Origin: a virus
Direction: 5' to 3' (one strand)
IMG/VR virus record: IMGVR_UViG_3300042465_005589
Coordinates: 141,741 to 205,740 of that record
DNA: 64,000 bases
Positions 4,583-42,926 of this stretch are shown one piece after another. Every line of letters begins with the position of its first letter. Position 1 is the first letter of the stretch. Below the pieces are notes generated by a model. The model saw only the letters and a program-made list of their open reading frames with translations. It did not search any database and had not been told where the DNA came from. The translations under genes were made by a program, and so were the position numbers.

Positions 4583-4900
4583 TTACACACATTCCTTATC
4601 GTAAATACCTTGTAGATAATCGGCAAAATTATCTACCATAAAATAATACAAAGTATCTTTGGTTTTAGAATCAATCTTTCCGCCGTTTTCATAATAGTAA
4701 TCATCAATTAAATCCAATACCAGCATATCACACATTTCACCAATAAAATCACCCAAACTTCCATAATCACAAGGATTATAATTCTGTATAACAAAATCTA
4801 AATGACCTTTAATTTCGTCATAATTAAACCTTCTACGAAGTGATGCCGGGATATTCTCCATTAACAAGTTATGCTGTCTTTCAGTGATTATAATTTTCAT
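4583..4900 (-). CDS. Hypothetical protein of the ITE N-terminal family (MKIIITERQHNLL...).
   Basis: Conserved N-terminal MKIIITE peptide. Its stop and the downstream start overlap as ATGA. Confidence 0.6.
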   Translation of the reverse strand: MKIIITERQHNLLMENIPASLRRRFNYDEIKGHLDFVIQNYNPCDYGSLGDFIGEMCDMLVLDLIDDYYYENGGKIDSKTKDTLYYFMVDNFADYLQGIYDKECV

Positions 4901-5259
4901 TCCTCAACAAATTCCTCAATTAATTTATTCAAACTTATTCCCAACATATCAAGACCAAGTATTTTTAAAAAATTATTTTCGCTAATTTTACGATTGTGAG
5001 ATTCACTTAAAACTAAGGTACCATATTCTTTACCTTGAGGGTGAAGATAATAATTATTTCCATTAACCTTAAACAAATACATTGGACCATAATTATTAAG
5101 TAACCACCTAAACTCATCTCTACCATCAGTAAACAAGTTTTGACCTTTAGGACCTAATTCAATCCAATTTGTAATTATTTCAATATTGTCGGATAAGTTA
5201 TAACCCAATATATTATTGATTAACCCTTTTAATCTGTTTTCTGTTATTATTATTTTCAT
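4897..5259 (-). CDS. Hypothetical protein of the ITE family and paralog of 10259..10633. Start moved to the internal MKIIITENRL.
   Basis: Track ORF 4897..5286. About 45% identity to 10259..10633 (NNILGYNLSDNIEIITNW vs NNTLGYDLSDTIEMITNYW; LGLDMLGISL...EEFVEE vs MGIDMFGIPL...DNFVKEE). Confidence 0.65.
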   Translation of the reverse strand: MKIIITENRLKGLINNILGYNLSDNIEIITNWIELGPKGQNLFTDGRDEFRWLLNNYGPMYLFKVNGNNYYLHPQGKEYGTLVLSESHNRKISENNFLKILGLDMLGISLNKLIEEFVEE

Positions 5260-5600
5260 AATTCTTCCTCCACTCTTTTCCACCACCAGGGGTTATCGTC
5301 TCTCGCCGAAACATTATTTGAATGTAAACCATATTCCTCCAATAACCATTTTTTTAATATTGTTTGAACATCAGAAAAATCTAATCCAAATATTTTGGTT
5401 AACCCACTCCATATATTAAACACATCAACATACACATTAGTGTTTGTTAAATGATAGTCAATCATTACCTTACCGTCTTTAACATAGAAAAGACGAGTTG
5501 GGTTGGATTCGCTTGTAACCGAAGGTAACCCTCCAAATTTATCGGTCAACCATTTTAGGACCAATCTATGTAATCTATCTTCAGTAATTATCATTCTCAT
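5256..5600 (-). CDS. Hypothetical protein of the ITE family (MRMIITEDRLHRLV...).
   Basis: 114-aa ORF with the conserved N-terminal peptide, tightly packed with its neighbours. Confidence 0.6.
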   Translation of the reverse strand: MRMIITEDRLHRLVLKWLTDKFGGLPSVTSESNPTRLFYVKDGKVMIDYHLTNTNVYVDVFNIWSGLTKIFGLDFSDVQTILKKWLLEEYGLHSNNVSARDDNPWWWKRVEEEL

Positions 5601-5601
5601 A

Positions 5602-5919
5602 TTAATTTAATCTTCTAGTAAAAAAAGTTGATTTTAATGCTGACGGTTCATTAAATTTAATTGAAACATATTCTTTACAGATATCCACCAAATCAGGTAT
5701 AGACATCCCTAACATATTTTTAGCGGTATAAAAATCATCGTAGTCAAATCGTATTGATTCTTGTTTGGTATCATATTCAAAAGCGGTACGACCATTATCA
5801 TCCATATATTCATATAGAACGTGAGGATACCCCATACGTATCGGTCGTCTCCCGTGTTTCTCATAACCCCTAAAGGTCATATCAAAATATTTAAAGATGA
5901 GTTCTTTCTTTCTGTTCAT
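5602..5919 (-). CDS. Hypothetical protein.
   Basis: 105-aa ORF spaced 2 nt from the upstream gene. Confidence 0.55.
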   Translation of the reverse strand: MNRKKELIFKYFDMTFRGYEKHGRRPIRMGYPHVLYEYMDDNGRTAFEYDTKQESIRFDYDDFYTAKNMLGMSIPDLVDICKEYVSIKFNEPSALKSTFFTRRLN

Positions 5920-5930
5920 AATTAACTACT

Positions 5931-6335
5931 CTAATTTAATCCGGAACAACGTCCACCTTTACACGGGGACTTAGGACCATTATCTCCAGCCCAAAAAGTT
6001 CTTTCTCCTTTAGGTTCAGGATTTTCAGCAGCGTTCTTTTTTGTTCTATCATCAAATTCTTTATACCATTGGTCAAAAGTTTGTCCGGGTTTTTTATACT
6101 TTTCGTAAGATTTTGTCCAAACAAGTTTATTTCGTTCTTTCTTTAAAGAATCTTTAATAGCAAATGCTTTAGCCCGTTCTTGACGTAGAGCCTCCGCTTT
6201 TTCTTTATTAAGTTCAATTTGTTTTAATCTTTGTTGTTGAGGTGTTAAAACGGTAGTTGTCCCCCCACTAGTTACCGGAGGAGTGGTTTGTTCAATCAAA
6301 AAATTATACTGTGATTCTGTAATTAATATCTTCAT
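5931..6335 (-). CDS. Hypothetical Lys-rich protein of the ITE family (MKILITESQYNFLIEQ...).
   Basis: 134-aa ORF with the conserved N-terminus and a basic, coiled-coil-like middle region. Confidence 0.55.
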   Translation of the reverse strand: MKILITESQYNFLIEQTTPPVTSGGTTTVLTPQQQRLKQIELNKEKAEALRQERAKAFAIKDSLKKERNKLVWTKSYEKYKKPGQTFDQWYKEFDDRTKKNAAENPEPKGERTFWAGDNGPKSPCKGGRCSGLN

Positions 6336-6347
6336 ACAAATAAATAT

Positions 6348-6373
6348 CCCCCAACACCGAAATAAAAGGGGGG
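6348..6373 (-). terminator. Hairpin (CCCCC...GGGGGG) downstream of the stop of gene 6379..7416.
   Basis: GC stem in an AT-rich context, with the TTAA/T-rich flank seen in the rest of this terminator family. Confidence 0.4.
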
Positions 6374-6378
6374 TTAAA

Positions 6379-7416
6379 TTAATCTACGTTAGTTATTTCG
6401 GTGGGGTGCTCTGTAAATACAGCAGAATTAAAACTGTGGGTATAATTTTTATTATCAAATTCCAACATTTTATTTGGATTAACAAATAATATTTTATCAA
6501 CCAATGATTTTCCCTTATAATCTCTCATACCATAAGTTTTAATGAAAAAAGGACCTTCTTTTTTACCGGCATACGAGACCAATGGTTTAATTTGATAGTT
6601 TATACCATCAATAGTAGCATCAACCCCTTCATATCTATCCATTATAGAACCCGATGGATAAAATGTAGTATTACTACCTTTTTTTAATATTTTAGCCAAT
6701 TCTTCACTTTTATATCCATTCTCAATGGATTGCCATTGACGTTCAACTAAAGGTTCAATAAAAGATGGATTATCTCTAAGTTCATTAGCCAACCAATTAA
6801 CAATATCCAAATCACTGTCCGATTTAGAGTATCTTTTGTTTATCAGTTCCTGAATTTCTTTTTTGGTATCAAAATAATTTAAAATAGACCAATCATCTTC
6901 ATTACCCAATTTTTCACCAATGGTATAGACACCTCTCACACCAGCAGAAAATATGTTATCTTGATAGTTCCATTTACCCGGACCATCATTATCCGGTGGG
7001 AACGCCAATTCCAAAGCCTTACGAATTTGATAAGATGTTATCTCCTGTTTAATATTGGTTTTAGAATCATCAAGTAAATTGAATAATATGTTATAGTATT
7101 TCCTATCCTTATAATATAATTCATCACTAAAAATAAATGGAACTCCTCCCTTATATCTAATATCATTTTTATCCAATTCAAATACCCCGTTAGGACCTCT
7201 AAAGATTACAAATTGAGGTTCGTTTGGTTTTTTATAATCCGATTTTCCAAATTCAGTACCATTAAAAAATGCAATAAATTTTTTAGGGTATTTTTTATCA
7301 GGAACAACACCGATTGATTTATACTCATATTCAGGATTCTCATCCGAATAATCAAACGCACGATTAACCTCACTAACTAATACTTTATATTGTCGTTCTT
7401 TTATTAATATATTCAT
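6379..7416 (-). CDS. Hypothetical protein (345 aa) with an ITE-like N-terminus (MNILIKERQYKVLV).
   Basis: Long ORF. A hairpin terminator (6348-6373) follows its stop and an intergenic repeat copy lies upstream. Confidence 0.65.
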   Translation of the reverse strand: MNILIKERQYKVLVSEVNRAFDYSDENPEYEYKSIGVVPDKKYPKKFIAFFNGTEFGKSDYKKPNEPQFVIFRGPNGVFELDKNDIRYKGGVPFIFSDELYYKDRKYYNILFNLLDDSKTNIKQEITSYQIRKALELAFPPDNDGPGKWNYQDNIFSAGVRGVYTIGEKLGNEDDWSILNYFDTKKEIQELINKRYSKSDSDLDIVNWLANELRDNPSFIEPLVERQWQSIENGYKSEELAKILKKGSNTTFYPSGSIMDRYEGVDATIDGINYQIKPLVSYAGKKEGPFFIKTYGMRDYKGKSLVDKILFVNPNKMLEFDNKNYTHSFNSAVFTEHPTEITNVD

Positions 7417-7437
7417 AATAATAAATATCTATGTTTT

Positions 7438-7508
7438 CAAAAAAAGGGGCGGGGGGATTTTAATTCGACCGGAGGAAGATTGGGTGGGGAATAACGTTAC
7501 CACCAACC
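7438..7508. repeat. Intergenic repeat copy A (AAAAAAAGGGGCGGGGGGATTTTAATTCGACCGGAGGAAGATTGGGTGGGG...).
   Basis: It shares the AAAAAAGGGGGCGGGGGGATT head with copies B and C. It sits directly upstream, on the coding strand, of gene 6379..7416. Confidence 0.55.
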
Positions 7509-7627
7509 TTTAAATTTTCCATTTAAGAAAACTGTACCCACAATGGGTATTAATATTCGTAGAACTAATAGACCCAAACATATAAAACCTATGGTCTCCA
7601 AAAAATTATATTTCCAAATTATCTCCA

Positions 7628-8458
7628 TTACTTATTTAAATATTCTTTATACTCTTTCTCTAACACTTCTCTACTATCCGTTAAATAATCATTTTTAGAT
7701 AACCAATCAAATAACCACCTTGTTTGGTAATGAAATACATTATTATAAACTTTCTCTTCTCTAATTCTAAATCTCTCATTACTCTCCTCAACAAACTTAC
7801 TTGGTTCCTTAGATACAATCTTTTCCAACTTCTCACTAAGGGTTTCTACTTTACCAAAATATTTCTTTGGAACCATAAGTGGTCTAACTATTTCGTCCTT
7901 AACCTCAATACCCACCTTAGTTATGTACCCATAATCAACTCCAGTACAGTCATTACAATTTTCACACTGAAAACTACATTGTTCTCCGTAGTCAACCTCA
8001 TCACCACAATAGAAATTCTTTATTGGAAGAATGATTTTGTAAAATGAAGATTCATAAAATTCCATTGCCCCATCATAATGACCTCCTGTTCTATATATCT
8101 CAACTTCCTCACATCTTTGATTCTTCACAAACCACTTAAGGAACTCATCACTAATTTCCTGAACACCATCTTTTTGAAGGTCTAAGTCTGTTGTTAATAT
8201 CACTTTGTTTTTAAAATTACCTTCATCTCTTGGTCTTGCTTGAAACACACTTCCTTCATATACATAATAGTCTTTATCATATACGCCTTCTTCATCATTA
8301 GTGATGTACAAATTATGTGTAGATTTAATGTCTGTATGATACTTTGGAAACTCACATAGTTGATATGTTCTTTCTTGGCTATTGTAATATAGCCTACTTG
8401 TGTGTTCCGTTGGTAATACGTGTATGTTTTTCATTTTATTTCTTTTTAAATTGTTCAA
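7628..8458 (-). CDS. Hypothetical protein with a Cys-rich C-terminus, tandem paralog of 8436..9116.
   Basis: It shares a roughly 110-aa N-terminal domain (YDKDYYVYEGSVFQARPRDEGNFKNKVILTTD...) at about 85% identity with the neighbouring gene. The DNA blocks 8187-8299 and 8861-8973 are nearly identical. Confidence 0.65.
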   Translation of the reverse strand: MNNLKRNKMKNIHVLPTEHTSRLYYNSQERTYQLCEFPKYHTDIKSTHNLYITNDEEGVYDKDYYVYEGSVFQARPRDEGNFKNKVILTTDLDLQKDGVQEISDEFLKWFVKNQRCEEVEIYRTGGHYDGAMEFYESSFYKIILPIKNFYCGDEVDYGEQCSFQCENCNDCTGVDYGYITKVGIEVKDEIVRPLMVPKKYFGKVETLSEKLEKIVSKEPSKFVEESNERFRIREEKVYNNVFHYQTRWLFDWLSKNDYLTDSREVLEKEYKEYLNK

Positions 8459-9116
8459 ACCATCCTAATTTAACAGTATCTTTATGTTTTTGTTCAAAGT
8501 AAGTACAGTGCTTTTCAACTATCTCATTAATCATCACTATAACTTCTTCCTCACTATAACTTCTTTTTTGTTGCCATTTAGCACCAAATTTCATAGCTCC
8601 TAATACAAATCCTTTAGTAAGTTGTCCACAAAAATTAGTTTCCATAAATTTTTCAAAAGCTTCTTCAAGTGTTTCTTTAGATTCTTGTTTTGGTTCATCA
8701 GCAAAGTACATTCTTCTAATATGATATTTCCCAAATGTATATTTTCCGTTTATAAAATCTCCTTCTACTATTTCAACTTCCTCACAACTTGGATTCTTTA
8801 CAAAAAATTGTAAAAACTCATCATCAATCTTTTGCACACCATCTTTGATTAAGTCTTGGTCTGTTGTTAATATCACTTTGTTTTTAAAATTACCTTCATC
8901 TCTTGGTCTTGCTTGAAACACACTTCCTTCATATAGATAATAGTCTTTATCATATATACCTTCTTCATCAGATGTTATATACACATACTCGTGGGAACAC
9001 TTGGTACATTCGTTACTATTGGAATGGGATAAATTATCAAACCTCAATTTATTGGAATCCAAATCTCTCCACAATCTACTCTCCTTATCGGTGGGAATTA
9101 AAAATATGTTTTTCAT
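8436..9116 (-). CDS. Hypothetical protein, tandem paralog of 7628..8458 with a divergent C-terminal half.
   Basis: Conserved N-terminal domain. The promoter motif TATCTTTGT lies 13 nt upstream. Confidence 0.65.
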   Translation of the reverse strand: MKNIFLIPTDKESRLWRDLDSNKLRFDNLSHSNSNECTKCSHEYVYITSDEEGIYDKDYYLYEGSVFQARPRDEGNFKNKVILTTDQDLIKDGVQKIDDEFLQFFVKNPSCEEVEIVEGDFINGKYTFGKYHIRRMYFADEPKQESKETLEEAFEKFMETNFCGQLTKGFVLGAMKFGAKWQQKRSYSEEEVIVMINEIVEKHCTYFEQKHKDTVKLGWFEQFKKK

Positions 9117-9128
9117 AAATTATTTTTT

Positions 9129-9152
9129 TACAAAGATAACATTATTTTCCAA
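9129..9152 (-). promoter_or_regulatory. Conserved upstream motif copy (plus strand reads TACAAAGATAACATTATTTT).
   Basis: 13 nt upstream of the start of gene 8436..9116. Confidence 0.45.
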
Positions 9153-9639
9153 ACAATTCAAAAAATTTATCCTTATTTGTTTTCTCGGGTGGAAAAATAA
9201 ATGATTGAACGTGAAAGGTTATATAATCCATATCACTATAGGTCATCTTAAAATAATCATCAATCTCCTTACCGTATTCATTCTTACTTTTCTTCATACC
9301 ATTATGATTATTAAAATAGATATCAATACCAACCAAATACTTATATATCGGATTAAATGTCATAGGGTCATACACAGTTTGTTCTCTATAACCAACTGAA
9401 ACAACATCGTTAATCTCGGGACATAACTTCAAGATAACATCCTTGAATGTTTCGGGGATTGAAATCACCTTATTATCAGGAGACCCGTTGAGGTCAGGTT
9501 CAACACCTTTTTGTAATTCTCGTATAGGTTCATAATAATCCCGATAACATCCAGCAGGTCCGGTATCTATAATCCTATATGCCCCGTTTTCGTCTTCGTT
9601 TTCCATAATAACAATTAGAACATTTCTTTTACTGCACAA
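9142..9639 (-). CDS. Hypothetical protein.
   Basis: 165-aa ORF. Confidence 0.55.
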   Translation of the reverse strand: MCSKRNVLIVIMENEDENGAYRIIDTGPAGCYRDYYEPIRELQKGVEPDLNGSPDNKVISIPETFKDVILKLCPEINDVVSVGYREQTVYDPMTFNPIYKYLVGIDIYFNNHNGMKKSKNEYGKEIDDYFKMTYSDMDYITFHVQSFIFPPEKTNKDKFFELFGK

Positions 9640-9911
9640 ATATCTTGTGTTTCGTTTGTGATTTTATCTCTACGAATATCCATTTCGTTAAGTTGTTCGG
9701 CTAATGAGGCATAACCATATTCATCATTGGTCGGTTTCATTTCCCAAGCATTTACTTCAACATAATTAATAGCTTCCTCTTGAGTCATACCATCTAATTC
9801 CGGATAATCAGAAAGGGTTAATTCTACCGGTTGTTTAGTGATTGATGTTTCATAATATTCTCTTGAGAATACTGCAATTGTTTTTGGGGTTTGTTCTGTT
9901 TGTTCTGACAT
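9615..9911 (-). CDS. Hypothetical acidic protein.
   Basis: 98-aa ORF that overlaps the downstream gene by 25 nt. Confidence 0.5.
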   Translation of the reverse strand: MSEQTEQTPKTIAVFSREYYETSITKQPVELTLSDYPELDGMTQEEAINYVEVNAWEMKPTNDEYGYASLAEQLNEMDIRRDKITNETQDICAVKEMF

Positions 9912-9940
9912 GATATATAATTTTAGATAAAGATATAAAT

Positions 9941-9965
9941 AAAAAACCCCACAATCAAGTGGGGG
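9941..9965 (-). terminator. Intrinsic terminator. The minus strand reads CCCCCACTTGATTGTGGGG followed by TTTTTT.
   Basis: 6-bp GC stem plus a T run, directly after the stop of 9966..10256. Confidence 0.6.
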
Positions 9966-10256
9966 TTAATAAAGTTCCTGGTAATTACGATAATAATCAA
10001 TCCTATTACCAAAATTTTTTCTAATTAAATCAGTTACATAAACTTTCTGTCCTAATGTTAAATCCTGTCTATCCGTTAAGTCGGAAATAACACGACGAAC
10101 AACCTCATCAAAATAATCATCACGATAATAAAATCTGGATACAATTGTAGGTTCACCCATAGAAACCAAATACTTGTCAACAAGTTTTCTGATAAGGTCA
10201 ATTCTTCTCTTAAACCATATGTTATTAAATTGATTCTCTGTAATTATTATTTTCAT
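9966..10256 (-). CDS. Hypothetical protein of the ITE family (MKIIITENQFNNIW...).
   Basis: Conserved N-terminus. An intrinsic terminator follows the stop at 9941-9965. Confidence 0.6.
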   Translation of the reverse strand: MKIIITENQFNNIWFKRRIDLIRKLVDKYLVSMGEPTIVSRFYYRDDYFDEVVRRVISDLTDRQDLTLGQKVYVTDLIRKNFGNRIDYYRNYQELY

Positions 10257-10258
10257 AT

Positions 10259-10633
10259 CTATTCTTCTTTTACAAAATTATCAATAATAGTGCTAAGAGG
10301 AATTCCAAACATATCAATACCCATATAAGATAATAGTCGATGTTCATCAATACGTTCAACATATTCGGGTTTATAACCACCTTCATAAATAAACCATTCA
10401 CGACCTTCACGTTGTTGAGCCAACCACTTGCCATTTCCGGGTGTCTTAATCCAAAACATAGGTCCCCAATGATTTAATAGTGTATTAAATTCTCCTTTAC
10501 TCTCAAACATACGACGTATAAGAACATTAGCTTCCCAATAATTTGTAATCATTTCAATCGTATCCGACAAGTCATACCCCAATGTGTTGTTGACCATATT
10601 CATCAACTTACTTTCTGCAATAATAATTCTCAT
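10259..10633 (-). CDS. Hypothetical protein of the ITE family (MRIIIAESKLMNMV...), paralog of 4897..5259.
   Basis: See 4897..5259. Repeat copy B sits directly upstream. Confidence 0.65.
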   Translation of the reverse strand: MRIIIAESKLMNMVNNTLGYDLSDTIEMITNYWEANVLIRRMFESKGEFNTLLNHWGPMFWIKTPGNGKWLAQQREGREWFIYEGGYKPEYVERIDEHRLLSYMGIDMFGIPLSTIIDNFVKEE

Positions 10634-10656
10634 AATGATAAATATACATCATTCCA

Positions 10657-10704
10657 AAAAAAGGGGGCGGGGGGATTTGAGAACGACCGAAGGGAGTCCG
10701 GGTT
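10657..10704. repeat. Intergenic repeat copy B (AAAAAAAGGGGGCGGGGGGATTTGAGAACGACCGAAGGGAGTCCGGGTTATC).
   Basis: It shares an identical 19-nt core, GACCGAAGGGAGTCCGGGT, with copy C. It sits directly upstream of 10259..10633 and overlaps the stop of 10703..11302. Confidence 0.6.
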
Positions 10705-11302
10705 ATCTTTCATTATAAAAATCATCTAAAAATATTTCCAAAGAAGTTTTAGTATTATTTCTCATCATACTAAGTTTTATTAATCTATTGTAATCATCAC
10801 TCCCCTTAACAAATGTTTTAGAAAGACCAACTTGGGTATTACCCTCATTTGACTTTTTTGTCCCATTTTGATATGTTAAATTAAACTCTTTCACAAATGA
10901 ATATAATGGAATACAGTAGTATTCCGTATTAAAATTATCTAAAGCGTCTACGAAGGTAATTAATAAAAAATCAAAATGTTGATAAGGTCTAATATTCTTA
11001 ACATTAAACTTCTTATTTACACTTATTGATAATTTATTTTCAAAAACAATATTCTCTTTAGTTTTTTTGGTTCTAAGAAAAAAATCACCATACCCTAATG
11101 ATGCGGGAATAGGATACAAATACTTAAAATGATATAATAATTTATCCGTCCATTTATTACCATAAGACTGTGAATTACAATACAAGTAACAATTAATAAA
11201 AAATCTAATCCAATCCCCTTTGAATACAATATCTGAAATTACATTATGACTAACTAATTTCTTATTAGCTAATACCAATTCTTTTAATACGTTTTTTCTC
11301 AT
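10703..11302 (-). CDS. Hypothetical protein, weak candidate for a PD-(D/E)xK-type nuclease. The gene is bracketed by repeat copies B and C.
   Basis: The track ORF starts at a TTG (11308) and the first ATG is at 11300-11302. A possible D...(IVF)ENK motif (GYGDFFL ... IVFENKL) is the only functional hint. Confidence 0.5.
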   Translation of the reverse strand: MRKNVLKELVLANKKLVSHNVISDIVFKGDWIRFFINCYLYCNSQSYGNKWTDKLLYHFKYLYPIPASLGYGDFFLRTKKTKENIVFENKLSISVNKKFNVKNIRPYQHFDFLLITFVDALDNFNTEYYCIPLYSFVKEFNLTYQNGTKKSNEGNTQVGLSKTFVKGSDDYNRLIKLSMMRNNTKTSLEIFLDDFYNER

Positions 11303-11317
11303 TATCAATTTATTTTT

Positions 11318-11345
11318 GACAAAGATATAAATAATATTTTAATTA
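11318..11345 (-). promoter_or_regulatory. Conserved upstream motif copy (GACAAAGATATAAATAATATTTT).
   Basis: About 15 nt upstream of the start of 10703..11302. Confidence 0.45.
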
Positions 11346-11353
11346 TCCAAACA

Positions 11354-11430
11354 AAAAAGGGGGCGGGGGGATTGAACCCGACCGAAGGGAGTCCGGGTCC
11401 ACAGAGGTCCGTCATTCCCGACCCCAACCG
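11354..11430. repeat. Intergenic repeat copy C, the longest (AAAAAAGGGGGCGGGGGGATTGAACCCGACCGAAGGGAGTCCGGGTCCACAGAGGTCCGTCATTCCCGACCCCAACC).
   Basis: It sits upstream of 10703..11302 and overlaps the 3' end of 11412..11819. Confidence 0.6.
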
Positions 11431-11819
11431 TAATGAATAATCTTACCATTCACGTATTCCTTCCAAGTTTTATTCCAACGTCCCGAGAACAATACCGTCA
11501 TACATCCGGAACTATTAGATATCCGATGATAGGAATCACGGGGGAAATAAACCAACACCTTCTCACGTCTAGCAATACGATATTCCCCACTAATCTCATC
11601 ATCCAAGATGTGCTCGTCATACCCCCCAAACAGTTTCACAGACCACGCGTTAAAAGCGTGGGTATGAAACCTATCCTGACTACCAAAGGATTTATGAAAA
11701 TAAAAGAAGATGATGGAGAATAGCCACTTACATTCAAAGACCACGAATTGACTAACGATTTGTTCCCCAAACTCAAACCTGTTGTATTTGAGAAATGAAA
11801 TTGATTTTGTTTTTACCAT
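11412..11819 (-). CDS. Hypothetical protein, locally higher in GC. Its C-terminal codons overlap repeat copy C.
   Basis: 135 aa, preferred over the antisense ORF 11433..11723 because it is longer and matches the strand of its neighbours. Identity unknown. Confidence 0.4.
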   Translation of the reverse strand: MVKTKSISFLKYNRFEFGEQIVSQFVVFECKWLFSIIFFYFHKSFGSQDRFHTHAFNAWSVKLFGGYDEHILDDEISGEYRIARREKVLVYFPRDSYHRISNSSGCMTVLFSGRWNKTWKEYVNGKIIHYGWGRE

Positions 11820-11890
11820 AATTGTTATATACCTTATGGAATTAAATGATAATCAATTATATTCCGGATGTCAACCAATCAAAGCGGGGG

Positions 11891-13153
11891 TTAATGTCTA
11901 TTCCCTTGACTCTTGTTATCAGAACTCTCCTGTAACACCAAGTTATCATACGTACTATCACCACCTTTAGAATGTGGTTTATCCTTATGACCCCCATTTA
12001 TAACCTTACCGTTCTTAACCTGAAGGGGGGTGTAAATCTCAACACTACCATCCAACCTCGTAACAACACCTCCGGTCTCAATACACTTAGCCAACTTCTC
12101 CATCTCAGTGAACAATCTCTTAGAATCCAACTCATAGAAGTATTCCCCAATAAACGGGTGGAAATCATTATACATACACTCAAACTTATATTTCAAATTC
12201 TTAGTCATAGAACGACATAGATATGTCCAATTACTATTCATAGGATTCTTAAAGGTATCAATTATCCTCTGATTGTCCAATTCCAAATACTTATCAACAA
12301 ACTCAGATATCAAATCCTTATTCAATACACAGTTGTATTCACGACTCATATCCAATAAGAACATAAACAAATTAAATGAATTACCCTTAGTAATATCCGA
12401 TTTAGTTTCGTGTATCAAATTAATACACTTACCCCATACCTTCATAATGTCATTGAAATTCTTCTCATTGAATATTTCAACATTCTTATACATCAAATCC
12501 AAATTAGTAGTGTTCAATGTCTTGTCCTTTGATTGGTGATAAGATAAAAACTGACTAACCAATTCCAAATCTTTCATCCTTGAAAAGGTCAACCCACTTA
12601 TCTTTAATAACTCCCCACTATAATCAATACCGTTCTTACGAATAAACTCAGAAATAATCCCCTCCTCAGCATTCCTTCTCTCTTGGGGATTAGCAGATGT
12701 ATTACTGTTCAAATTAATGAAGGTTCTATGTAATTGATTCTTCGTAGCATTGAAAATATACTTTAAACTAATCTCACTATTGAAGAAGTCAAACATCATA
12801 TCACTCAATGGGGAATTCCAATCAATCTCATTATACTTCTCAATCAAAAACTCAGTCCTGTTCCCCCCATCTATTGAAATGTAACGATACCCCTGATTCC
12901 ATAAACTTGAAAAATATTCATAGTCCTTCGTATTATTCTGACTAAAGGAATATTCCATTGAAGACTTAATGTCACACAATACAATGTTACTCGCATCTGT
13001 ACCATCTAACAATGATAAATGATAACTAACCTTGTCGGTTTTCTTCCACACTTTTCTTCTTTGAATAGTTGGGTCATAATATACCCTATTCCCCTTAACA
13101 ATGTGAATGAACCCCTGAATTGTTTTTGACTCGTACTTCTTAATGATTCCCAT
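11891..13153 (-). CDS. Candidate GmrSD-like type IV (modification-dependent) restriction protein, with an N-terminal DUF262 (ParB-like) region and a C-terminal DUF1524 (HNH-like) region.
   Basis: DUF262-like motifs YYDPTIQRRKVW and ISIDGGNRTEF (compare xPxYQRxYxW ... IDGQQR). C-terminal GGHKDKPHSKGGDSTYDNLVLQESSDNKSQGN resembles the DUF1524 H..P...GG...NL.L...N..KGN signature. Promoter motif lies 27 nt upstream. Confidence 0.55.
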   Translation of the reverse strand: MGIIKKYESKTIQGFIHIVKGNRVYYDPTIQRRKVWKKTDKVSYHLSLLDGTDASNIVLCDIKSSMEYSFSQNNTKDYEYFSSLWNQGYRYISIDGGNRTEFLIEKYNEIDWNSPLSDMMFDFFNSEISLKYIFNATKNQLHRTFINLNSNTSANPQERRNAEEGIISEFIRKNGIDYSGELLKISGLTFSRMKDLELVSQFLSYHQSKDKTLNTTNLDLMYKNVEIFNEKNFNDIMKVWGKCINLIHETKSDITKGNSFNLFMFLLDMSREYNCVLNKDLISEFVDKYLELDNQRIIDTFKNPMNSNWTYLCRSMTKNLKYKFECMYNDFHPFIGEYFYELDSKRLFTEMEKLAKCIETGGVVTRLDGSVEIYTPLQVKNGKVINGGHKDKPHSKGGDSTYDNLVLQESSDNKSQGNRH

Positions 13154-13179
13154 AACGTTTATGTTTTAAAGTTTAACGG

Positions 13180-13207
13180 GACAAAGATAATACTTTTTTT
13201 TTAATAA
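13180..13207 (-). promoter_or_regulatory. Conserved upstream motif copy (GACAAAGATAATACTTTTTTTTTTAATA).
   Basis: 27 nt upstream of the GmrSD-like gene start. Confidence 0.5.
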
Positions 13208-13426
13208 CCAAATTTTTTCCAGAATTTTTTTTTTCATATCTCATATTCCAATATACGATATGACCCCATCCGGAAATTTTCCGGATTACTAATCATTATT
13301 TCCGGATACCCAATTAACAGGGGGGATTTTCCCCAATTTTTTTCCAAAAATTTTTTAAGGTTTTTTTTCTCGAATACTTTGTTTAAGGGATTATCCCCCC
13401 TATTTGACTGTCAATATGTCATATAT

Positions 13427-13475
13427 GGAGGGGGGATACGGGGGAGGGAGGGGGTATGCCCCCACATAGGGGGTA
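13427..13475 (+). other. G-quadruplex-forming motif (G6-ATAC-G5-A-G3-A-G5) that overlaps mutually exclusive GC hairpins (GGGGGTATGCCCCC and CCCCCACATAGGGGG).
   Basis: GGAGGGGGGATACGGGGGAGGGAGGGGGTATGCCCCCACATAGGGGG, set in a genome of about 30% GC. Confidence 0.6.
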
Positions 13476-13531
13476 AGATGGGAGGAGTTATCATAAGTTA
13501 TGAACACTCCCTCCGGTATGATGTTAATAAG

Positions 13532-13972
13532 TTATTGCATTATGTAATGGTCACGACGTATTCGTCTTGGTACATTAACTATCTCCCCTCTGAAGTTTTC
13601 GTAAGGGTAATTGATTTGGAATTCTTCCGGTAGTTGTTCATTGACATCAGTCATTAGACGTTCCATGTTATCTGTTGTATCATATGATAGGTCTTTAAGT
13701 TGGGGGTTGTCATCGTAACTGAATAGACCACCCAATGTATATGTTTCATATGGACCTTGTGTATCAAGATGTTCTACCCAATGTTTATTGGTTTCAATAC
13801 CAAAGAAGTTAGCTAACATCTTATAGTCCACCATGAAGTCAATGTTTAACATGGTATCATACTTAAGGAAGTCATTAGATGGTTTCCATCCTAAGATGAA
13901 AGGGTATTTCTTTTTGATAGCGTTGACCATCATGTCCACACTTCTCATTTGTTTTTTAGTTAATTGTTCCAT
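13532..13972 (-). CDS. Hypothetical protein inside the low-coding region.
   Basis: 146-aa ORF with protein-like composition. Confidence 0.5.
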   Translation of the reverse strand: MEQLTKKQMRSVDMMVNAIKKKYPFILGWKPSNDFLKYDTMLNIDFMVDYKMLANFFGIETNKHWVEHLDTQGPYETYTLGGLFSYDDNPQLKDLSYDTTDNMERLMTDVNEQLPEEFQINYPYENFRGEIVNVPRRIRRDHYIMQ

Positions 13973-14054
13973 ATGTTAATAAATATAATGAAATTTGTTT
14001 GTGGATACAAATCTTTTTTGTATCTTTGTACCACAGAATCGGTAATCAGTCCGG

Positions 14055-14096
14055 ATGGGGGCGAACCTTAAGGGTGGAAGAGTAGACTCCACAGCG
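14055..14096. repeat. Degenerate repeat copy D (GGATGGGGGCGAACCTTAAGGGTGGAAGAGTAGACTCCACAG).
   Basis: It shares the GGGGGCG(A/G), AAGGG and CCACAG segments with copy C. Confidence 0.35.
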
Positions 14097-14414
14097 CTCT
14101 ATATTTATATATATCCCCCCATTTACTGAGAATATGATAATGGAGTATATATACTTCTGAAAATAATTGTTAATGAATCCCCCATTTTGTTGAGAATGTC
14201 ATAATTTATTTATATCTTTGTTAATTGACGGTGATTATCGCCGGTAACTATTAAACATTTAAACTATGATGATACTATTTAATATACTAATTGTGATGGG
14301 GGTTCTTATTTTCATTGGTGAAGTTGTGGCTCAGAAACTACCTAAAGACAATTCCTTTGTTATATGGTGGAGGAAACATATCATCGAACATTTATCCGAT
14401 GATGACCCCCGATT

Positions 14415-18762: not shown

Positions 18763-19097
18763 TAATCCTCATTGTGATACCCCATCAAATATACTTCTTC
18801 GGGTTCTAACCTTATTCTATCTTTAAACCACCAAAAAATAACTCTTTGTAGTTCTTCCTCACCAAATGAGAAAACCGATAGAGGTAACCAAAAATCCCTA
18901 TAAACATATAATCCCCCATTATTCTCTAACCATTTCAATATAATTTTACCATCACTATCTTTGAATAACACTCGGTGATTACTAAACACTGAATTTACAT
19001 TCATATCTTTATCTTCACGTGTTAATTTACTCAAGACATTATCTAATACCTTATAGGATAATTGTCTTCTTTTATCTTCTGTAAGAAGTACTCTCAT
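18762..19097 (-). CDS. Hypothetical protein with an ITE-like N-terminus (MRVLLTEDKRRQL).
   Basis: 111-aa ORF. A 13-bp stem hairpin abuts its stop codon. Confidence 0.55.
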   Translation of the reverse strand: MRVLLTEDKRRQLSYKVLDNVLSKLTREDKDMNVNSVFSNHRVLFKDSDGKIILKWLENNGGLYVYRDFWLPLSVFSFGEEELQRVIFWWFKDRIRLEPEEVYLMGYHNED

Positions 19098-19483
19098 ATA
19101 TAATCATTAGTTATTTGAGCAACATTTAATCCTGTGTTTTCTTCAAACCATTCCTTAAATACCGGTAACCATCTATCACCAAATAAAGATGTTAGTTCTT
19201 GACCAACTCTCGGATATATAGATAGTAAAGGACATTTATAATTATGTAAGTGACCATAACCAGCAAAGAATTCATCTTCCGGACCAGCATTTGCGTTACA
19301 CCCATAGTAAATGTAGCTATCAGCATCATCTATAAAGAAAACAATATCACCCCACTTATCAACATCTCTTTGATATGAACCGTGTCTTGTATTTTCATTC
19401 CACCCATAATCCGGATAAAATTCTTTGTCTAAATACTTACGTATAATCTGATTAACTTTATTTTCTGATATAATTACTTTCAT
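19094..19483 (-). CDS. Hypothetical protein of the ITE family (MKVIISENKVNQII...).
   Basis: 129-aa ORF whose start and stop overlap with its neighbours. Confidence 0.6.
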   Translation of the reverse strand: MKVIISENKVNQIIRKYLDKEFYPDYGWNENTRHGSYQRDVDKWGDIVFFIDDADSYIYYGCNANAGPEDEFFAGYGHLHNYKCPLLSIYPRVGQELTSLFGDRWLPVFKEWFEENTGLNVAQITNDYI

Positions 19484-20091
19484 TCTTTTATAATTCTAAA
19501 TCTCAATAATGGTTTACCATTAATTGTGATGTCACCTTTATCATTTTTTTCTATTGTCTTAACAATAACTTTTTTGTTTTTAAATTTACCCCCCATTAGA
19601 GTATCACCAACTTTAATATCTAACTTAATCATTTCACTTAATGTTAATTCTTCTTCATCATGATGATTCCAAGTATCACCACCTGTTCCTTTGTATATTA
19701 ATCTAACGGCATTCGCCGGAATATCCCCAAAGGTAACGATATGTTTAGTATCACCACCCTCAAAATGAGCGTCTTTATACCATTGCACACCAGCTCTTTC
19801 AGTATCAATCACCCATATGTCATCATCATAAGTTGAATCAAACATATCTTTCTTCTTTAAACTATCTGTTGCAAACACAGCAGGAATACATTCTTCATCT
19901 TCACCATAATTACTATCGGCATAAATCAAATAACATTCCCCCAAAGATACCTGAAGACCTGTAGTTGAAATATTATCTCTATTTGATGGATTTGATGAAT
20001 GAACAATAAATCTTCCGGGAGTAATCTCTTCCCCCTTCACTCGTTGTTCTTGTAGTTTTCTATATTGTGTTTCTGTTATAATTACTTTCAT
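19480..20091 (-). CDS. Hypothetical protein of the ITE family (MKVIITETQYRKLQ...).
   Basis: 203-aa ORF. Confidence 0.6.
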   Translation of the reverse strand: MKVIITETQYRKLQEQRVKGEEITPGRFIVHSSNPSNRDNISTTGLQVSLGECYLIYADSNYGEDEECIPAVFATDSLKKKDMFDSTYDDDIWVIDTERAGVQWYKDAHFEGGDTKHIVTFGDIPANAVRLIYKGTGGDTWNHHDEEELTLSEMIKLDIKVGDTLMGGKFKNKKVIVKTIEKNDKGDITINGKPLLRFRIIKE

Positions 20092-20399
20092 TAGTCCCTT
20101 ACCATTTTAACTTCCATACCCCAACTTGCACCATATGTATTAATATAAAGACCAAACATTGAATTAATATCATTTCTTATTTGTCTAGCCATATAACTTG
20201 GACTATGTGTCATCTTACCATCAATGAAGTCAATGTTTAGTATATTTCTAACAATATCATTCTCACCTTTTTCATTTGGTTCACCGGCTAAACGAATTAA
20301 CTTTGTTGTAAAAAACACCCTTTTAACCATAGGATATCCTTTAAGAATATATTTCTCAATTGAACTATTTAACCTATTTTCTGTGATTATTACTTTCAT
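20091..20399 (-). CDS. Hypothetical protein of the ITE family (MKVIITENRLNSSI...).
   Basis: 102-aa ORF. Confidence 0.6.
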   Translation of the reverse strand: MKVIITENRLNSSIEKYILKGYPMVKRVFFTTKLIRLAGEPNEKGENDIVRNILNIDFIDGKMTHSPSYMARQIRNDINSMFGLYINTYGASWGMEVKMVRD

Positions 20400-24047: not shown

Positions 24048-24130
24048 ATCTATAAATATAACATGAGGGTAAAAATTACCCCCGTCTTTTGAACGAGGGT
24101 AATTATTTTATTTTTTTACTCTCATTAAAT

Positions 24131-24862: not shown

Positions 24863-24890
24863 AAAAGGTCCCCGAAGGAACCTTTTTTTT
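24861..24890. terminator. Bidirectional hairpin AAAAAAGGTCCCCGAAGGAACCTTTTTTTTT.
   Basis: Ends the plus-strand gene 24377..24862 and, from the other side, the ORF-free unit that starts at the 25048 motif. Confidence 0.6.
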
Positions 24891-24895
24891 TATTT

Positions 24896-25035
24896 CACCA
24901 TAAGTTGAGGTTGTTAACCCGAATCATAACACTTGATTCTTAGCAGTTAGGTTTTAGGATTGCCTAACATTCCTTGTCACCATCTTTCGATGTATTTGGG
25001 TTTCCGCCCCTCTTTTTCGACATAATCTTTTATTC
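24896..25035 (-). ncRNA. Candidate small non-coding RNA of about 130 nt, running from the upstream motif to the hairpin terminator.
   Basis: No ORF longer than 19 codons. The segment is GC-richer and contains a GAGGGGCGGAAACCC segment related to the intergenic repeat head. It is bounded by the promoter-like motif at 25048-25072 and the terminator at 24861-24890. Confidence 0.25.
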
Positions 25036-25047
25036 CTTATTTGTTTG

Positions 25048-25072
25048 ACAAAGATAATACTTTTTTTAATAC
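25048..25072 (-). promoter_or_regulatory. Conserved upstream motif copy (GACAAAGATAATACTTTTTTTAATA) with no protein gene downstream on the minus strand.
   Basis: An ORF-free, GC-richer stretch of about 140 nt follows, then a hairpin terminator. Confidence 0.45.
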
Positions 25073-25167
25073 TACCAAACTTTTTTAAAGTTTTTTTTAT
25101 TTATTATCTAATTAACTTTAATGTCAGTAGTTATACGTATCATACATTAAAAAAGTTACAAAAACAT

Positions 25168-28714: not shown

Positions 28715-30405
28715 ATACTTATATCATCTAATCTATAATTAACATTTTCATTTACAACACTATCATCAGGTGATGGATACCATCTGTCATCGGGGTCAAA
28801 GTCAGGTTTATCAATATGACTTTCAGATAATAATTCATTAAATATTCCTTCTAAATCATACTTACCATCCCTATTCATATGATTTTCAAATATTTCATCA
28901 ACCCAACCTTCATCAATATCAACTAAATTAGCTAAATCGACTTGAATTTTGGCTCCGGTGTCATTAAATTCATATACATTACCATAAAACTCTAACGCCG
29001 ACTCAATTTCTTTCTGTAGAAAATCTACATAATCATTTGCGTCAGCATCATTTATCGCACCACCAATAGCATTTCTTATTTCCCAATCATCATCCACTTG
29101 TTTGATAGAATCTTCTAAATCTAAATCCTCATCTAATTCAACACCATCTCTTTCTGCCATTTTTCTAACAATATCCCACAATCTTTCTTCGGTTGGTTTG
29201 TCTACTGTATATTGGAAATAACTACCAAAATCTTCGTAACCGTCTTGATTCCACAAATCCCAAGCATCACCAGCCATTATTTCAACAAAAATACTTGTTC
29301 TTGTTTGTTTTCCGGTTGTTCTATTAGTATAAGTACGATAGGTACATCCATCAACATAATCATCAAAATCCTCAGGTTTAATTTCTAATGAGAATCCTGT
29401 TGGTAATGGTTCCATTTCAATAATACCCATCTTATCTAACAATCGTTGCATAGGTCTTGACGAGAACAACTCCGGTCTATTTTGATACAATTCTTTGATT
29501 GTTTGTTCCGGTAAGTCAGACAATTTAAAATCCTGTTCTGATGCGTACTCCGTTCCAAATCCTTGAATTAAATAATCATCTTCTTCACCTTCACCACCTA
29601 ACACGTAGAATAACGGTTGAATGTATTGATGGTATTCATCTTTTGGTTTTGAGTTCTTAACACCCTTCAACTGATACATAATACCATCCTCACCAATTGC
29701 CGCAGTTAGAACTGATTTGTTTAATTTATATTTGTTGTTAATCGGAATTACTTGTCTTAATGAATAAAGATATCCATAAGAACTTCTTCCACAATGCCCC
29801 ATTCTATTACATTCTTCTGATGAGTTTTTTGTATTCAAATCAGCCCAATAAAACCCATTTCCATTTTCATCAGTGAAATCTAATATAGTTGGGTTTTCTT
29901 CCTTATAATTAATATCACCCTGACCAATTTCCAAACTATCGTGCCATTGTTTTGATTTACGATGTAATTCATTCAAATTTAACTCTTTATTTTCACCTAA
30001 ATTACCATTCAAACCAACTCTAATCCAATCCATTATTGATGTAATATCTTGTCTATGTGAATTAATAGCTAAATTATTGTTCATATTTTTAATCGTAGCT
30101 CTTTTATATTCTTTATCATCGTCAAATTCCGGAAGGATTGATACTAAACGTTTAGAATAAAAATCAATAAATTTATTACCCATCCAAACAGATAAAGGAC
30201 CACATAGTTTATCCAATAGGTCAGCATTCTCCTCATTAAACCCAATCTTATCCATTAAGATTTGTTTCTTGGATGCCTCCGTAATGATTTGTCTTATACT
30301 CTCAATTAATTTCATACCTATATAAATATAACGAAAACAAAAAACCCCCAATGAGGAGGTTTTTTTATACTGTAAATTTGAAATGATTAGTTTCGTCAAA
30401 ATCAA
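28711..30405 (-). CDS. Hypothetical large acidic protein.
   Basis: 564-aa ORF. Confidence 0.65.
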   Translation of the reverse strand: MILTKLIISNLQYKKTSSLGVFCFRYIYIGMKLIESIRQIITEASKKQILMDKIGFNEENADLLDKLCGPLSVWMGNKFIDFYSKRLVSILPEFDDDKEYKRATIKNMNNNLAINSHRQDITSIMDWIRVGLNGNLGENKELNLNELHRKSKQWHDSLEIGQGDINYKEENPTILDFTDENGNGFYWADLNTKNSSEECNRMGHCGRSSYGYLYSLRQVIPINNKYKLNKSVLTAAIGEDGIMYQLKGVKNSKPKDEYHQYIQPLFYVLGGEGEEDDYLIQGFGTEYASEQDFKLSDLPEQTIKELYQNRPELFSSRPMQRLLDKMGIIEMEPLPTGFSLEIKPEDFDDYVDGCTYRTYTNRTTGKQTRTSIFVEIMAGDAWDLWNQDGYEDFGSYFQYTVDKPTEERLWDIVRKMAERDGVELDEDLDLEDSIKQVDDDWEIRNAIGGAINDADANDYVDFLQKEIESALEFYGNVYEFNDTGAKIQVDLANLVDIDEGWVDEIFENHMNRDGKYDLEGIFNELLSESHIDKPDFDPDDRWYPSPDDSVVNENVNYRLDDISI

Positions 30406-42895: not shown

Positions 42896-42926
42896 AATTC
42901 TTTTATTTATAAATATCCGATTAAAC

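Follow-up and report, generated by a model that had tools for sequence, protein, structure and literature searches.

In coliphage N4, the three early promoters are hairpins of the template strand, each with a stem of 5-7 bp and a triloop, either GGA or GAA, whose centre lies at -11 (PMC4496689, PMC13037366). The bases of the stem may vary as long as pairing is kept, and the hairpins are extruded by supercoiling and read by an injected virion RNA polymerase (PMC4496689, PMC13037366). A different type of small phage element, the PeSL of T4-type phages, combines a host sigma-70-type promoter with a stem-loop terminator (PMC2839356, PMC4122927). The DNA mini-hairpins d(GCGNAGC), RSF1010 ssiA and the phage G4 origin share a C-GNA-G triloop closed by a G:C pair, and C-GNA-G mini-hairpins have an extraordinary stability that nearest-neighbour models miss (PMC13037366). 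Here we describe an intergenic element of about 50 bp that is repeated in a stretch of viral DNA (IMG/VR record IMGVR_UViG_3300042465_005589, positions 141,741 to 205,740), and we compare it with these systems. The whole 64,000-nt stretch is referred to below as the window, and positions are those within it. To our knowledge, recognition of promoter hairpins has so far been peculiar to N4-like podoviruses.

The window was scanned with a sequence-only model of the element (R1), which was trained on 30 copies from other phages. Three copies were found, at 7438-7485 (copy A), 10652-10704 (copy B) and 11349-11399 (copy C), all on the minus strand, which carries nearly all genes of this AT-rich window (G+C ~31%); the next-best match in the 64 kb had E=0.54. 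This number of copies exceeds chance by far. The plus strand holds the head GGGGCGGGGGGATT three times (at 7446, 10664 and 11360), where 0.06 occurrences are expected, and a 19-nt core, which copies B and C share letter for letter as the initial annotation of this DNA had reported, occurs twice (10685 and 11380), where 0.00 are expected. That annotation had also placed each copy between the stop of a minus-strand gene and the start region of the next, which holds for copies A, B and C. It had counted four copies, three of which were borne out at their locations but with spans that were too long, 7486-7508 and 11400-11430 being flank or coding sequence. The fourth, at 14055-14096, and a supposedly related head near 25000 do not belong to the family, because no other R1 match was better than E=0.5 (E>0.5 at both sites); the latter is moreover G-rich on the sense strand, a polarity opposite to that of the element.

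Structure and distribution of the element

On its sense strand, the element consists of (A)CCCGRA, CTCNN-TYC-N'N'TCG, 4-7 nt of a spacer that is variable and T-rich, AA(A)TCCCCCCGCCCCC and a run of 6-11 T residues. Variants of the C-tract include CCCCCCTCCCCC and CCCAGCCC. The two blocks that flank the spacer (Block 1 and Block 2) are nearly invariant, their G, A and T positions included, whereas the spacer drifts. Conserved blocks next to a drifting spacer, together with the compensatory stem changes described below, point to selection on the sequence itself.

The repeat family, which the initial annotation had recognised within the window, reaches far beyond it. Exact-pattern scans located it in uncultured AT-rich phage contigs of 20-322 kb in IMG/VR and in many AT-rich contigs of metagenomes, mostly from freshwater, and about 70 distinct copies were gathered in all. 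Contigs that carry the element include IMGVR_UViG_3300023184_000027, 3300032280_000442, 3300042482_000702, 3300032330_001609 and 3300042889_001503. Large contigs (175-322 kb) hold 2-3 exact-pattern copies each, a few kb apart and among small ORFan genes, and the locus often lies <20 kb from a contig end, which may itself be an assembly break. Several metagenome contigs (L104, L110, L143 and L178) stop inside or beside the C-tract or T run of the element, consistent with assembly breaks at repeated homopolymer-rich sequence. Among 185,579 bacterial and archaeal genomes, one per species, the only match was found on a 2.5-kb phage-like contig labelled uncultured Bacteroides. Neither the region nor the consensus element had a nucleotide match among cultured relatives in 50,697 phage records, and Rfam gave no match over the copies at gathering scores or at E<=10. 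The element family is previously undescribed, and it was not found in the literature, where its sequence itself was not queried.

The large phages that carry the element probably infect Bacteroidota. The closest protein-level relative of a structural protein of the window comes from a Flavobacterium myophage (34% identity), and the intergenic regions frequently contain promoters of the form TTTG-N19-21-TAnnTTTG, which we take to be the Bacteroidota consensus and which point to a Bacteroidota host.

All copies lie between genes. Each has the orientation of a neighbouring gene, and there is no copy that runs antisense to the genes on both sides. The genes beside the copies are unrelated to each other, with no consistent neighbouring protein family. 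On small contigs, arrays of small genes are separated by a terminator hairpin, the element and a promoter-like motif. The element is best explained as an oriented, phage-specific module at the boundaries of gene cassettes, in variable regions of large phages. Whatever its mechanism, it is a widespread and strongly constrained non-coding motif that marks the borders of cassettes where these genomes are most plastic, and it could be used to track gene shuffling and as a building block in the engineering of such phages.

A covarying mini-hairpin and its likeness to N4 promoters

Block 1 occurs as three alleles: ACTC-CC-TYC-GG-TCG (allele i, ~60 copies), ACTC-AC-TTC-GT-TCG (allele ii, 6-11 copies) and ACTC-GT-TYC-AC-TCG (allele iii, ~5 copies). 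In 70 distinct copies, the first variable stem pair is CG in 59, AU in 6 and GC in 5, and the second is CG in 65 and UA in 5; neither pair is broken in any copy (0/70), and the outer C-G closing pair is kept in 69/70. In this 13-nt mini-hairpin, pairing holds for 99.5% of cells, a level reached by 0/500 shuffles, and the signal collapses in every slid register. Pairing is also kept in 77 copies collected with a pattern that leaves these four bases free, and the alleles were seen again in additional copies. The Y polymorphism of Block 1 falls in the loop, and an outward extension of the mini-hairpin found no support.

The two invariant stem positions form U.C and C.U oppositions on the sense strand, a poor helix. 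The complementary, G-rich strand serves the flanking genes as template and reads 5'-C GA NN GRA N'N' GA G-3', with tandem 5'-GA-3'/3'-AG-5' beside a GRA triloop closed by C-G, which is the type of the very stable DNA mini-hairpins (PMC13037366). From this difference between the strands, we infer a hairpin of the G-rich strand, most plausibly one of DNA. The RNA level was examined as well. A consensus RNA structure of 30 copies was essentially absent (RNAalifold -1.67 kcal/mol, 3 invariant pairs), and single-copy RNA folds of either strand were not better than shuffles, copy B being worse than 197/200 of them. A 5-bp RNA hairpin between CCGRA and UYCGG was rejected, since R and Y assort independently, pairing is at 87.7% as against 88.4% in shuffles, and variant alleles break it. 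A G-quadruplex or i-motif was also rejected, as conservation does not extend to the fourth G/C run, and runs are lost in alleles (ii) and (iii) and in variants with a short C-tract.

At the level of sequence, the mini-hairpin matches the design of the N4 promoters. The sense strand of the N4 genome reads GTTGC-TTC-GCAAC, GAAGC-TCC-GCTTC and GCTGC-TCC-GCAGC at positions 90, 559 and 4548, each followed by TT(T/A)T and GG. As in the element, the N4 hairpin has 13 nt, with five stem positions per arm and a 3-nt loop, and the loop is the same, with TYC as its sense-strand form and GRA as its template-strand form (GGA where Y=C, GAA where Y=T). Both lie on the same strand relative to the genes, and in both the variable stem bases covary. 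In N4, RNA starts 11 nt from the loop centre; in the element, a T-rich stretch occupies -4 to -1 and conserved A residues follow from 10-13 nt (mode 12). The N4 promoters are few, co-oriented and clustered among small early-type genes; the copies of the element are likewise few and co-oriented, and they cluster among small ORFan genes. The comparison crosses lineages, the phages with the element not being Schitoviridae and having contigs of up to 322 kb. The virion RNA polymerase of the crAss-like phage phi14:2 was considered as another analogue and set aside, because its early transcripts lack a common upstream motif and thus provide no model for the element.

It is quite possible, though short of probable, that the element is a hairpin-dependent start site for RNA synthesis at the boundaries of gene cassettes, either a promoter for a non-host polymerase or a related primer-forming site. 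In such a mechanism, the 13-nt mini-hairpin would be the functional core of the element. The G-rich template strand would present it by extrusion or while single-stranded, and a polymerase that reads hairpins would recognise it, as with coliphage N4. RNA synthesis would start ~11-12 nt downstream, where the conserved AA(A)T follows the T-rich stretch, and the RNA would begin with AAAUCCCCCCGCCCCCUUUUUUU, have the C-rich tract and the U run as its first part, and head toward the next gene. The conserved ~50 bp probably doubles as portable homology for cassette shuffling. A broader proposal, which we consider somewhat doubtful, is that, in large Bacteroidota phages unrelated to Schitoviridae, template-strand mini-hairpins that combine a GRA triloop with tandem G.A pairs may signal the start site to an RNA polymerase or primase that reads hairpins.

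With a start site, the covariation, strand and geometry of the hairpin find an explanation, as do the low copy number, the place of the element after terminators and the copies at divergent junctions. A number of observations weigh against it. It leaves unaccounted for the conservation of the C-tract and the presence of copies at convergent gene ends, where some 6-10 copies (in L010b, L019, L023 and L026) have no downstream gene or promoter. A second promoter, either host-type or of a type that we call P2 (see below), usually lies between the element and the gene. The N4 stem is all Watson-Crick, whereas that of the element holds two invariant G.A pairs, and N4 shows no conservation past ~+1, whereas the element keeps its 5' CCCGRA and the 15-nt C-tract with its T run, which such a mechanism does not explain. 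The three alleles amount to only about three independent compensatory events. With tblastn, the N4 virion RNA polymerase had no homologue in the window or in 1.5 Mb of other loci, which are genome fragments only. Finally, nearest-neighbour DNA folding fails to predict the hairpin, although such failure is usual for mini-hairpins (PMC13037366).

If RNA synthesis does start at the element, a second, unrelated lineage would use an N4-type device, and structure-specific initiation on DNA would be far more widespread than known. The conserved C-rich leader and U run would then have a new role. The element would also provide a searchable handle of ~50 nt for early or initiation regions of uncultured large Bacteroidota phages and would point to an unrecognised polymerase or primase.

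Alternative explanations and genomic context

The main rival to a hairpin-dependent start site, and one that we regard as doubtful, is a factor-dependent terminator or insulator that lacks a hairpin. An unstructured, C-rich and G-poor rut-like RNA with a U run would load Rho or another factor after the stop codon and end the upstream unit. Such a role would suit the position of the element: about half of the copies start <=20 nt from the upstream stop codon, six of them exactly at a TAA that forms the 5' edge of the element, and some copies lie at the convergent gene ends mentioned above. It would also suit the composition, since the copies are among the strongest islands of sense-strand C over G (z 3.5-4.1) and no structure is conserved near the U run of their sense RNA. 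In addition, the element remains with an upstream 135-aa gene where the gene on its other side is a different one, and between the window and a related locus (L001) the homology of gene and element stops exactly at the T run. An unrelated C-rich island, at 13409-13458, lies in the same kind of position. However, Rho requires no specific sequence, yet the two blocks are nearly invariant, and the covariation of the stem would be left unexplained. The C-rich tract, of ~45 nt, is shorter than the ~70-80 nt of a rut site. An ordinary terminator hairpin already precedes 23/66 copies, about the rate at element-free junctions, which makes the element ill-suited as a substitute terminator. Several copies in divergent intergenic regions receive no sense transcription, so that a terminator there would have nothing to stop.

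Related possibilities at the RNA level were examined and rejected. The initial annotation had suggested an attenuator, which as an RNA hairpin followed by a U run finds no counterpart in the sense RNA, and an intrinsic (Rho-independent) terminator was dismissed because no G+C-rich RNA hairpin is conserved next to the U run. Nor did the view that the element stands in for a terminator hairpin find support: a clear hairpin is present in only 16/40 T-run/P2 sites that lack the element, and the 23 copies behind a terminator have both. The nutR/tR1 region of phage lambda (boxA, boxB and rutA/rutB) resembles the element in that a small hairpin and C-rich unstructured RNA occur in few copies between early genes. 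Lambda nut sites lie downstream of promoters, whereas the element lies upstream of them, and, unlike nutR/tR1, the sense RNA of the element, with U.C/C.U mismatches in its stem and a UYC triloop, would make a poor RNA hairpin.

It is rather unlikely that the element has no function of its own and is a selfish or hitch-hiking module, spreading with cassettes by homologous recombination in a PeSL-like manner or by way of a hairpin-recognising single-strand transposase. The arrays of terminator, element, promoter and small-ORF (open reading frame) cassettes are consistent with such spread, as is the gene order, which is shuffled among relatives, the window and L001 among them, with breakpoints at elements. 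Presence and absence vary at orthologous junctions: behind the orthologous 135-aa gene, the element is canonical, variant or absent, and the downstream genes differ. Where it follows a terminator, the element lies between two T runs. Terminator hairpins with the conserved loops CCCACTTTAACGAGTGGG and CCCCCGCTTTAATTAGTTGGGGG recur in related loci (L006, L008, L010, L024, L073, L082, L087, L106, L121, L139, L145 and L191), and the conservation of these loops across contexts and phages suggests a copy-and-paste spread of regulatory modules. On the other hand, the conserved blocks, the drifting spacer and the compensatory stem changes indicate selection, and the element has neither terminal repeats nor an associated transposase or recombinase. 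A search for empty and filled orthologous sites gave no clean pair; it exposed a junction at which allele (iii) stands in for allele (i). The frequency of homology breaks, 99% at elements and 95% at other junctions, was uninformative.

PeSLs are the closest counterpart to a module of this kind. Like the element, they are small conserved motifs in variable (hyperplastic) regions, immediately 5' of ORFans and flanking the insertions, deletions and replacements by which related phages differ. PeSLs are composites in which terminators and promoters are packed together, and the element is found in similarly packed arrays. In contrast to a PeSL, which contains a promoter and a terminator, the element contains neither and sits as an extra module between a separate terminator and promoter. 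PeSLs have no sequence homology to it, and recombination through the element is putative. A PeSL-like role is compatible with any of the other readings, and a cautious alternative view would class the element as a new boundary motif of the PeSL type.

A binding site for a phage regulator, serving as an operator, activator site or boundary element for the adjacent promoter, also seems unlikely. In its favour is the promoter-like motif just downstream, which is present in strict form 3' of 47/66 copies and, with near-matches judged by eye, of ~55/66. In 38/66 copies this motif is P2, (T/G)ATATTTAT, located 8-11 nt past the T run and 4 or 14-16 nt from the ATG; in 9/66 it is a strict host-type promoter, to which several near-matches can be added. 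The low copy number would be that of a small regulon, Block 1 and Block 2 look like imperfect direct repeats ~21 bp apart, and divergent intergenic contexts would suit a regulator. However, the distance to the promoter varies. In the 38 copies with P2, its position is fixed to the end of the T run (standard deviation 0.8 bp) and not to the C-tract (1.5 bp) or Block 1 (2.5 bp), which led us to reject a fixed promoter geometry of the blocks, and host-type promoters lie anywhere from 1-18 nt from the element. A protein that reads duplex DNA should need base identity, yet the alleles swap bases and keep complementarity. Some copies have no downstream promoter. Mycobacteriophage start-associated sequences and stoperators are, like the element, short, conserved and orientation-locked intergenic motifs at some junctions. 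They are duplex motifs of 13-14 bp or linked to translation starts, in tens of copies, whereas the element has ~50 bp, 2-4 copies and a covarying hairpin. The protein-binding site put forward in the initial annotation may apply in a narrower form, as a mini-hairpin that is backed by covariation and would best be formed by the opposite, G-rich template DNA strand.

We consider it improbable that the element is a single-strand initiation (priming) signal or a replication origin, at which a primase or polymerase would read the mini-hairpin, and a short C-rich RNA would stay on the G-rich template and pass to a DNA polymerase at the A/T run. Where Y=T, allele (i) has on its G-rich strand the core CCGAAGG, which is identical to the mini-hairpin of RSF1010 ssiA, and mini-hairpins are also found at the phage G4 origin (PMC13037366). 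A hairpin followed by 12 G:C pairs and a weak A:U run is a design suited to a stable primer, and priming would also explain the copies that have no downstream gene. The ssiA and G4 hairpins, however, are priming signals of single-stranded replicons, whereas the element lies in double-stranded DNA genomes, on the strand that is the template for transcription, and has extra tandem G.A pairs. GC skew suggests that the hairpin strand is the leading-strand template, where priming signals are not needed. Strict co-orientation with genes and adjacency to promoters are not required for priming, and no primase is linked to the element.

A tRNA-derived fragment or a remnant attachment site, both raised in the initial annotation, is effectively refuted: copy C holds GGTCGGGTTCAATCC, around which an outer G-rich/C-rich stem can close, but ARAGORN found 0 genes in the window and 50 related loci, Rfam gave no tRNA or tmRNA at E<=10, the T-loop-like GGTTCAATCC is part of the variable spacer, the outer stem exists in few copies only (the G-rich arm of copy C comes from coding sequence), and the 185,579 genomes hold only the single match on a phage-like contig.

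Copies of the element and other features of the window

Copy B (R1 63.5 bits, E=7e-19) is a full element that begins with the TAA stop of ORF 10703-11308 and runs through Block 1, the spacer and the C-tract to a T7 run, ending 18 nt before the ATG at 10633. Its mini-hairpin core on the G-rich (template) strand, CGACC-GAA-GGGAG, lies at 10684-10696 on the plus strand; columns 17/23 and 18/22, together with the C14-G26 pair, carry the covariation in the 70 copies. Block 2 (AAATCCCCCCGCCCCC, 10663-10678, minus strand) and the T7 run (10656-10662) together span 10656-10678. A putative P2 promoter, TATATTTAT, is located at 10638-10646 on the minus strand. It lies 9 nt downstream of the T run, and the ATG at 10633 follows it at a distance of 4 nt. 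A pattern scan found no IMG/VR relatives of ORF 10703-11308, whereas blastp links its product to that of a 358-aa gene at the same position in L001. This link led us to reject the view that the ORF is a mobile insertion.

Copy C, likewise a full element (R1 59.1 bits, E=1.7e-17), starts 12 nt past the stop (11412-11414) of the 135-aa gene (11412-11819), and its orthologue sits behind the same gene in L001 and L032. On the G-rich strand, its mini-hairpin core at 11379-11391 (plus strand) again reads CGACC-GAA-GGGAG, as judged from sequence and covariation. Block 2 (AATCCCCCCGCCCCC, 11359-11373) and a T6 run (11353-11358) make up 11353-11373 on the minus strand. Between copy C and ORF 10703-11308, a putative promoter of what we take to be the Bacteroidota type, TTTG-N20-TATCTTTG, lies at 11320-11351 on the minus strand; it belongs to repeat family D17. 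In another related locus (L035:2908-2990), a Block 1 variant forms three tandem 17-nt repeats (CACTCACTTCGTCCGGT) directly 3' of the 135-aa gene, which indicates a slippage-prone version of the element.

Copy A (R1 42.8 bits, E=2.1e-12) has diverged. Its Block 1 carries three changes (ACCCAATCTTCCTCCGGTCG), its C-tract is intact and a T7 run is present, and it is homologous to the copy at 328-380 in L001. A 43-aa ORF (7497-7628) has its stop 11 nt 5' of copy A, and the ATG at 7416 lies 21 nt past the end of the copy. The core of its mini-hairpin on the G-rich strand, CGACC-GGA-GGAAG (7466-7478, plus strand), keeps the pairs but has one G.A position altered. A P2-like motif, GATATTTAT, is found at 7421-7429 on the minus strand, 9 nt past the end of copy A, 10 nt past its T run and 4 nt before the ATG.

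P2-type sites in the window include those at 10638-10646, 7421-7429, 6339-6347, 13985-13993, 24052-24060, 30320-30330 and 42900-42910. Related loci hold 158 distinct P2 sites, and 129 of the 158 occur without the element. Compared with the standard Bacteroidota promoter, P2 has its TTTG one helical turn nearer to the TA-rich box, and P2 sites with a 4-nt gap to the ATG would yield leaderless mRNAs.

The strongest island of sense-strand C over G, at 13409-13458, is part of a 378-nt non-coding stretch (13154-13531, minus strand) behind a 146-aa gene. This stretch contains several local hairpins of C runs with G runs, the motifs ACTCCTCCC and TATCCCCCCTCC, which are reminiscent of the element, and a weak Rfam match to sRNA162 (E=0.51), and it lies upstream of a host-type promoter at ~13165-13200. 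The site that had been taken for a fourth copy falls within 13996-14130 on the plus strand, just 3' of a Bacteroidota-type promoter, TTTG-N19-TATCTTTG (~13996-14030), and within a long predicted hairpin; it may be a plus-strand small RNA, and a similar second promoter is found nearby, at ~14195-14232. The region of the supposed head near 25000 (24865-25085, minus strand) has a host-type promoter, a 19-codon ORF (MSKKRGGNPNTSKDGDKEC) and a clean terminator (GGTTCCTTCGGGGACC with a T run), which make up a gene for a small peptide or small RNA; GAGGGGCGGAAACCC within it is unrelated to the element.

An ORF at 772-2178 on the plus strand has at least 11 tandem 66-nt (22-aa) repeats and a weak DUF445 match. 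A 420-aa ORF at 11891-13153 on the minus strand, with a DGGNR motif and a C-terminal H..N..H, has by eye the look of a GmrSD/DUF262-HNH-type nuclease, with no match in Pfam or PHROG. Many small genes in 4583-7416, 9966-10633 and 19094-20399 start with MK(I/V)IITE(N/S), and related phages contain multi-copy families that start with MNRSYSKIRHIQ, MKKVIRLTESDL and MELNRFKQLLES; paralogous ORFan families of this kind are typical of a hyperplastic region. The adjacent genes at 7628-8458 and 8436-9116 are paralogous and share a 218-nt block at 85% identity (8096-8313 and 8769-8986). A homologue of this pair lies upstream of the 135-aa gene in L001, which shows that the region is rearranged between relatives.

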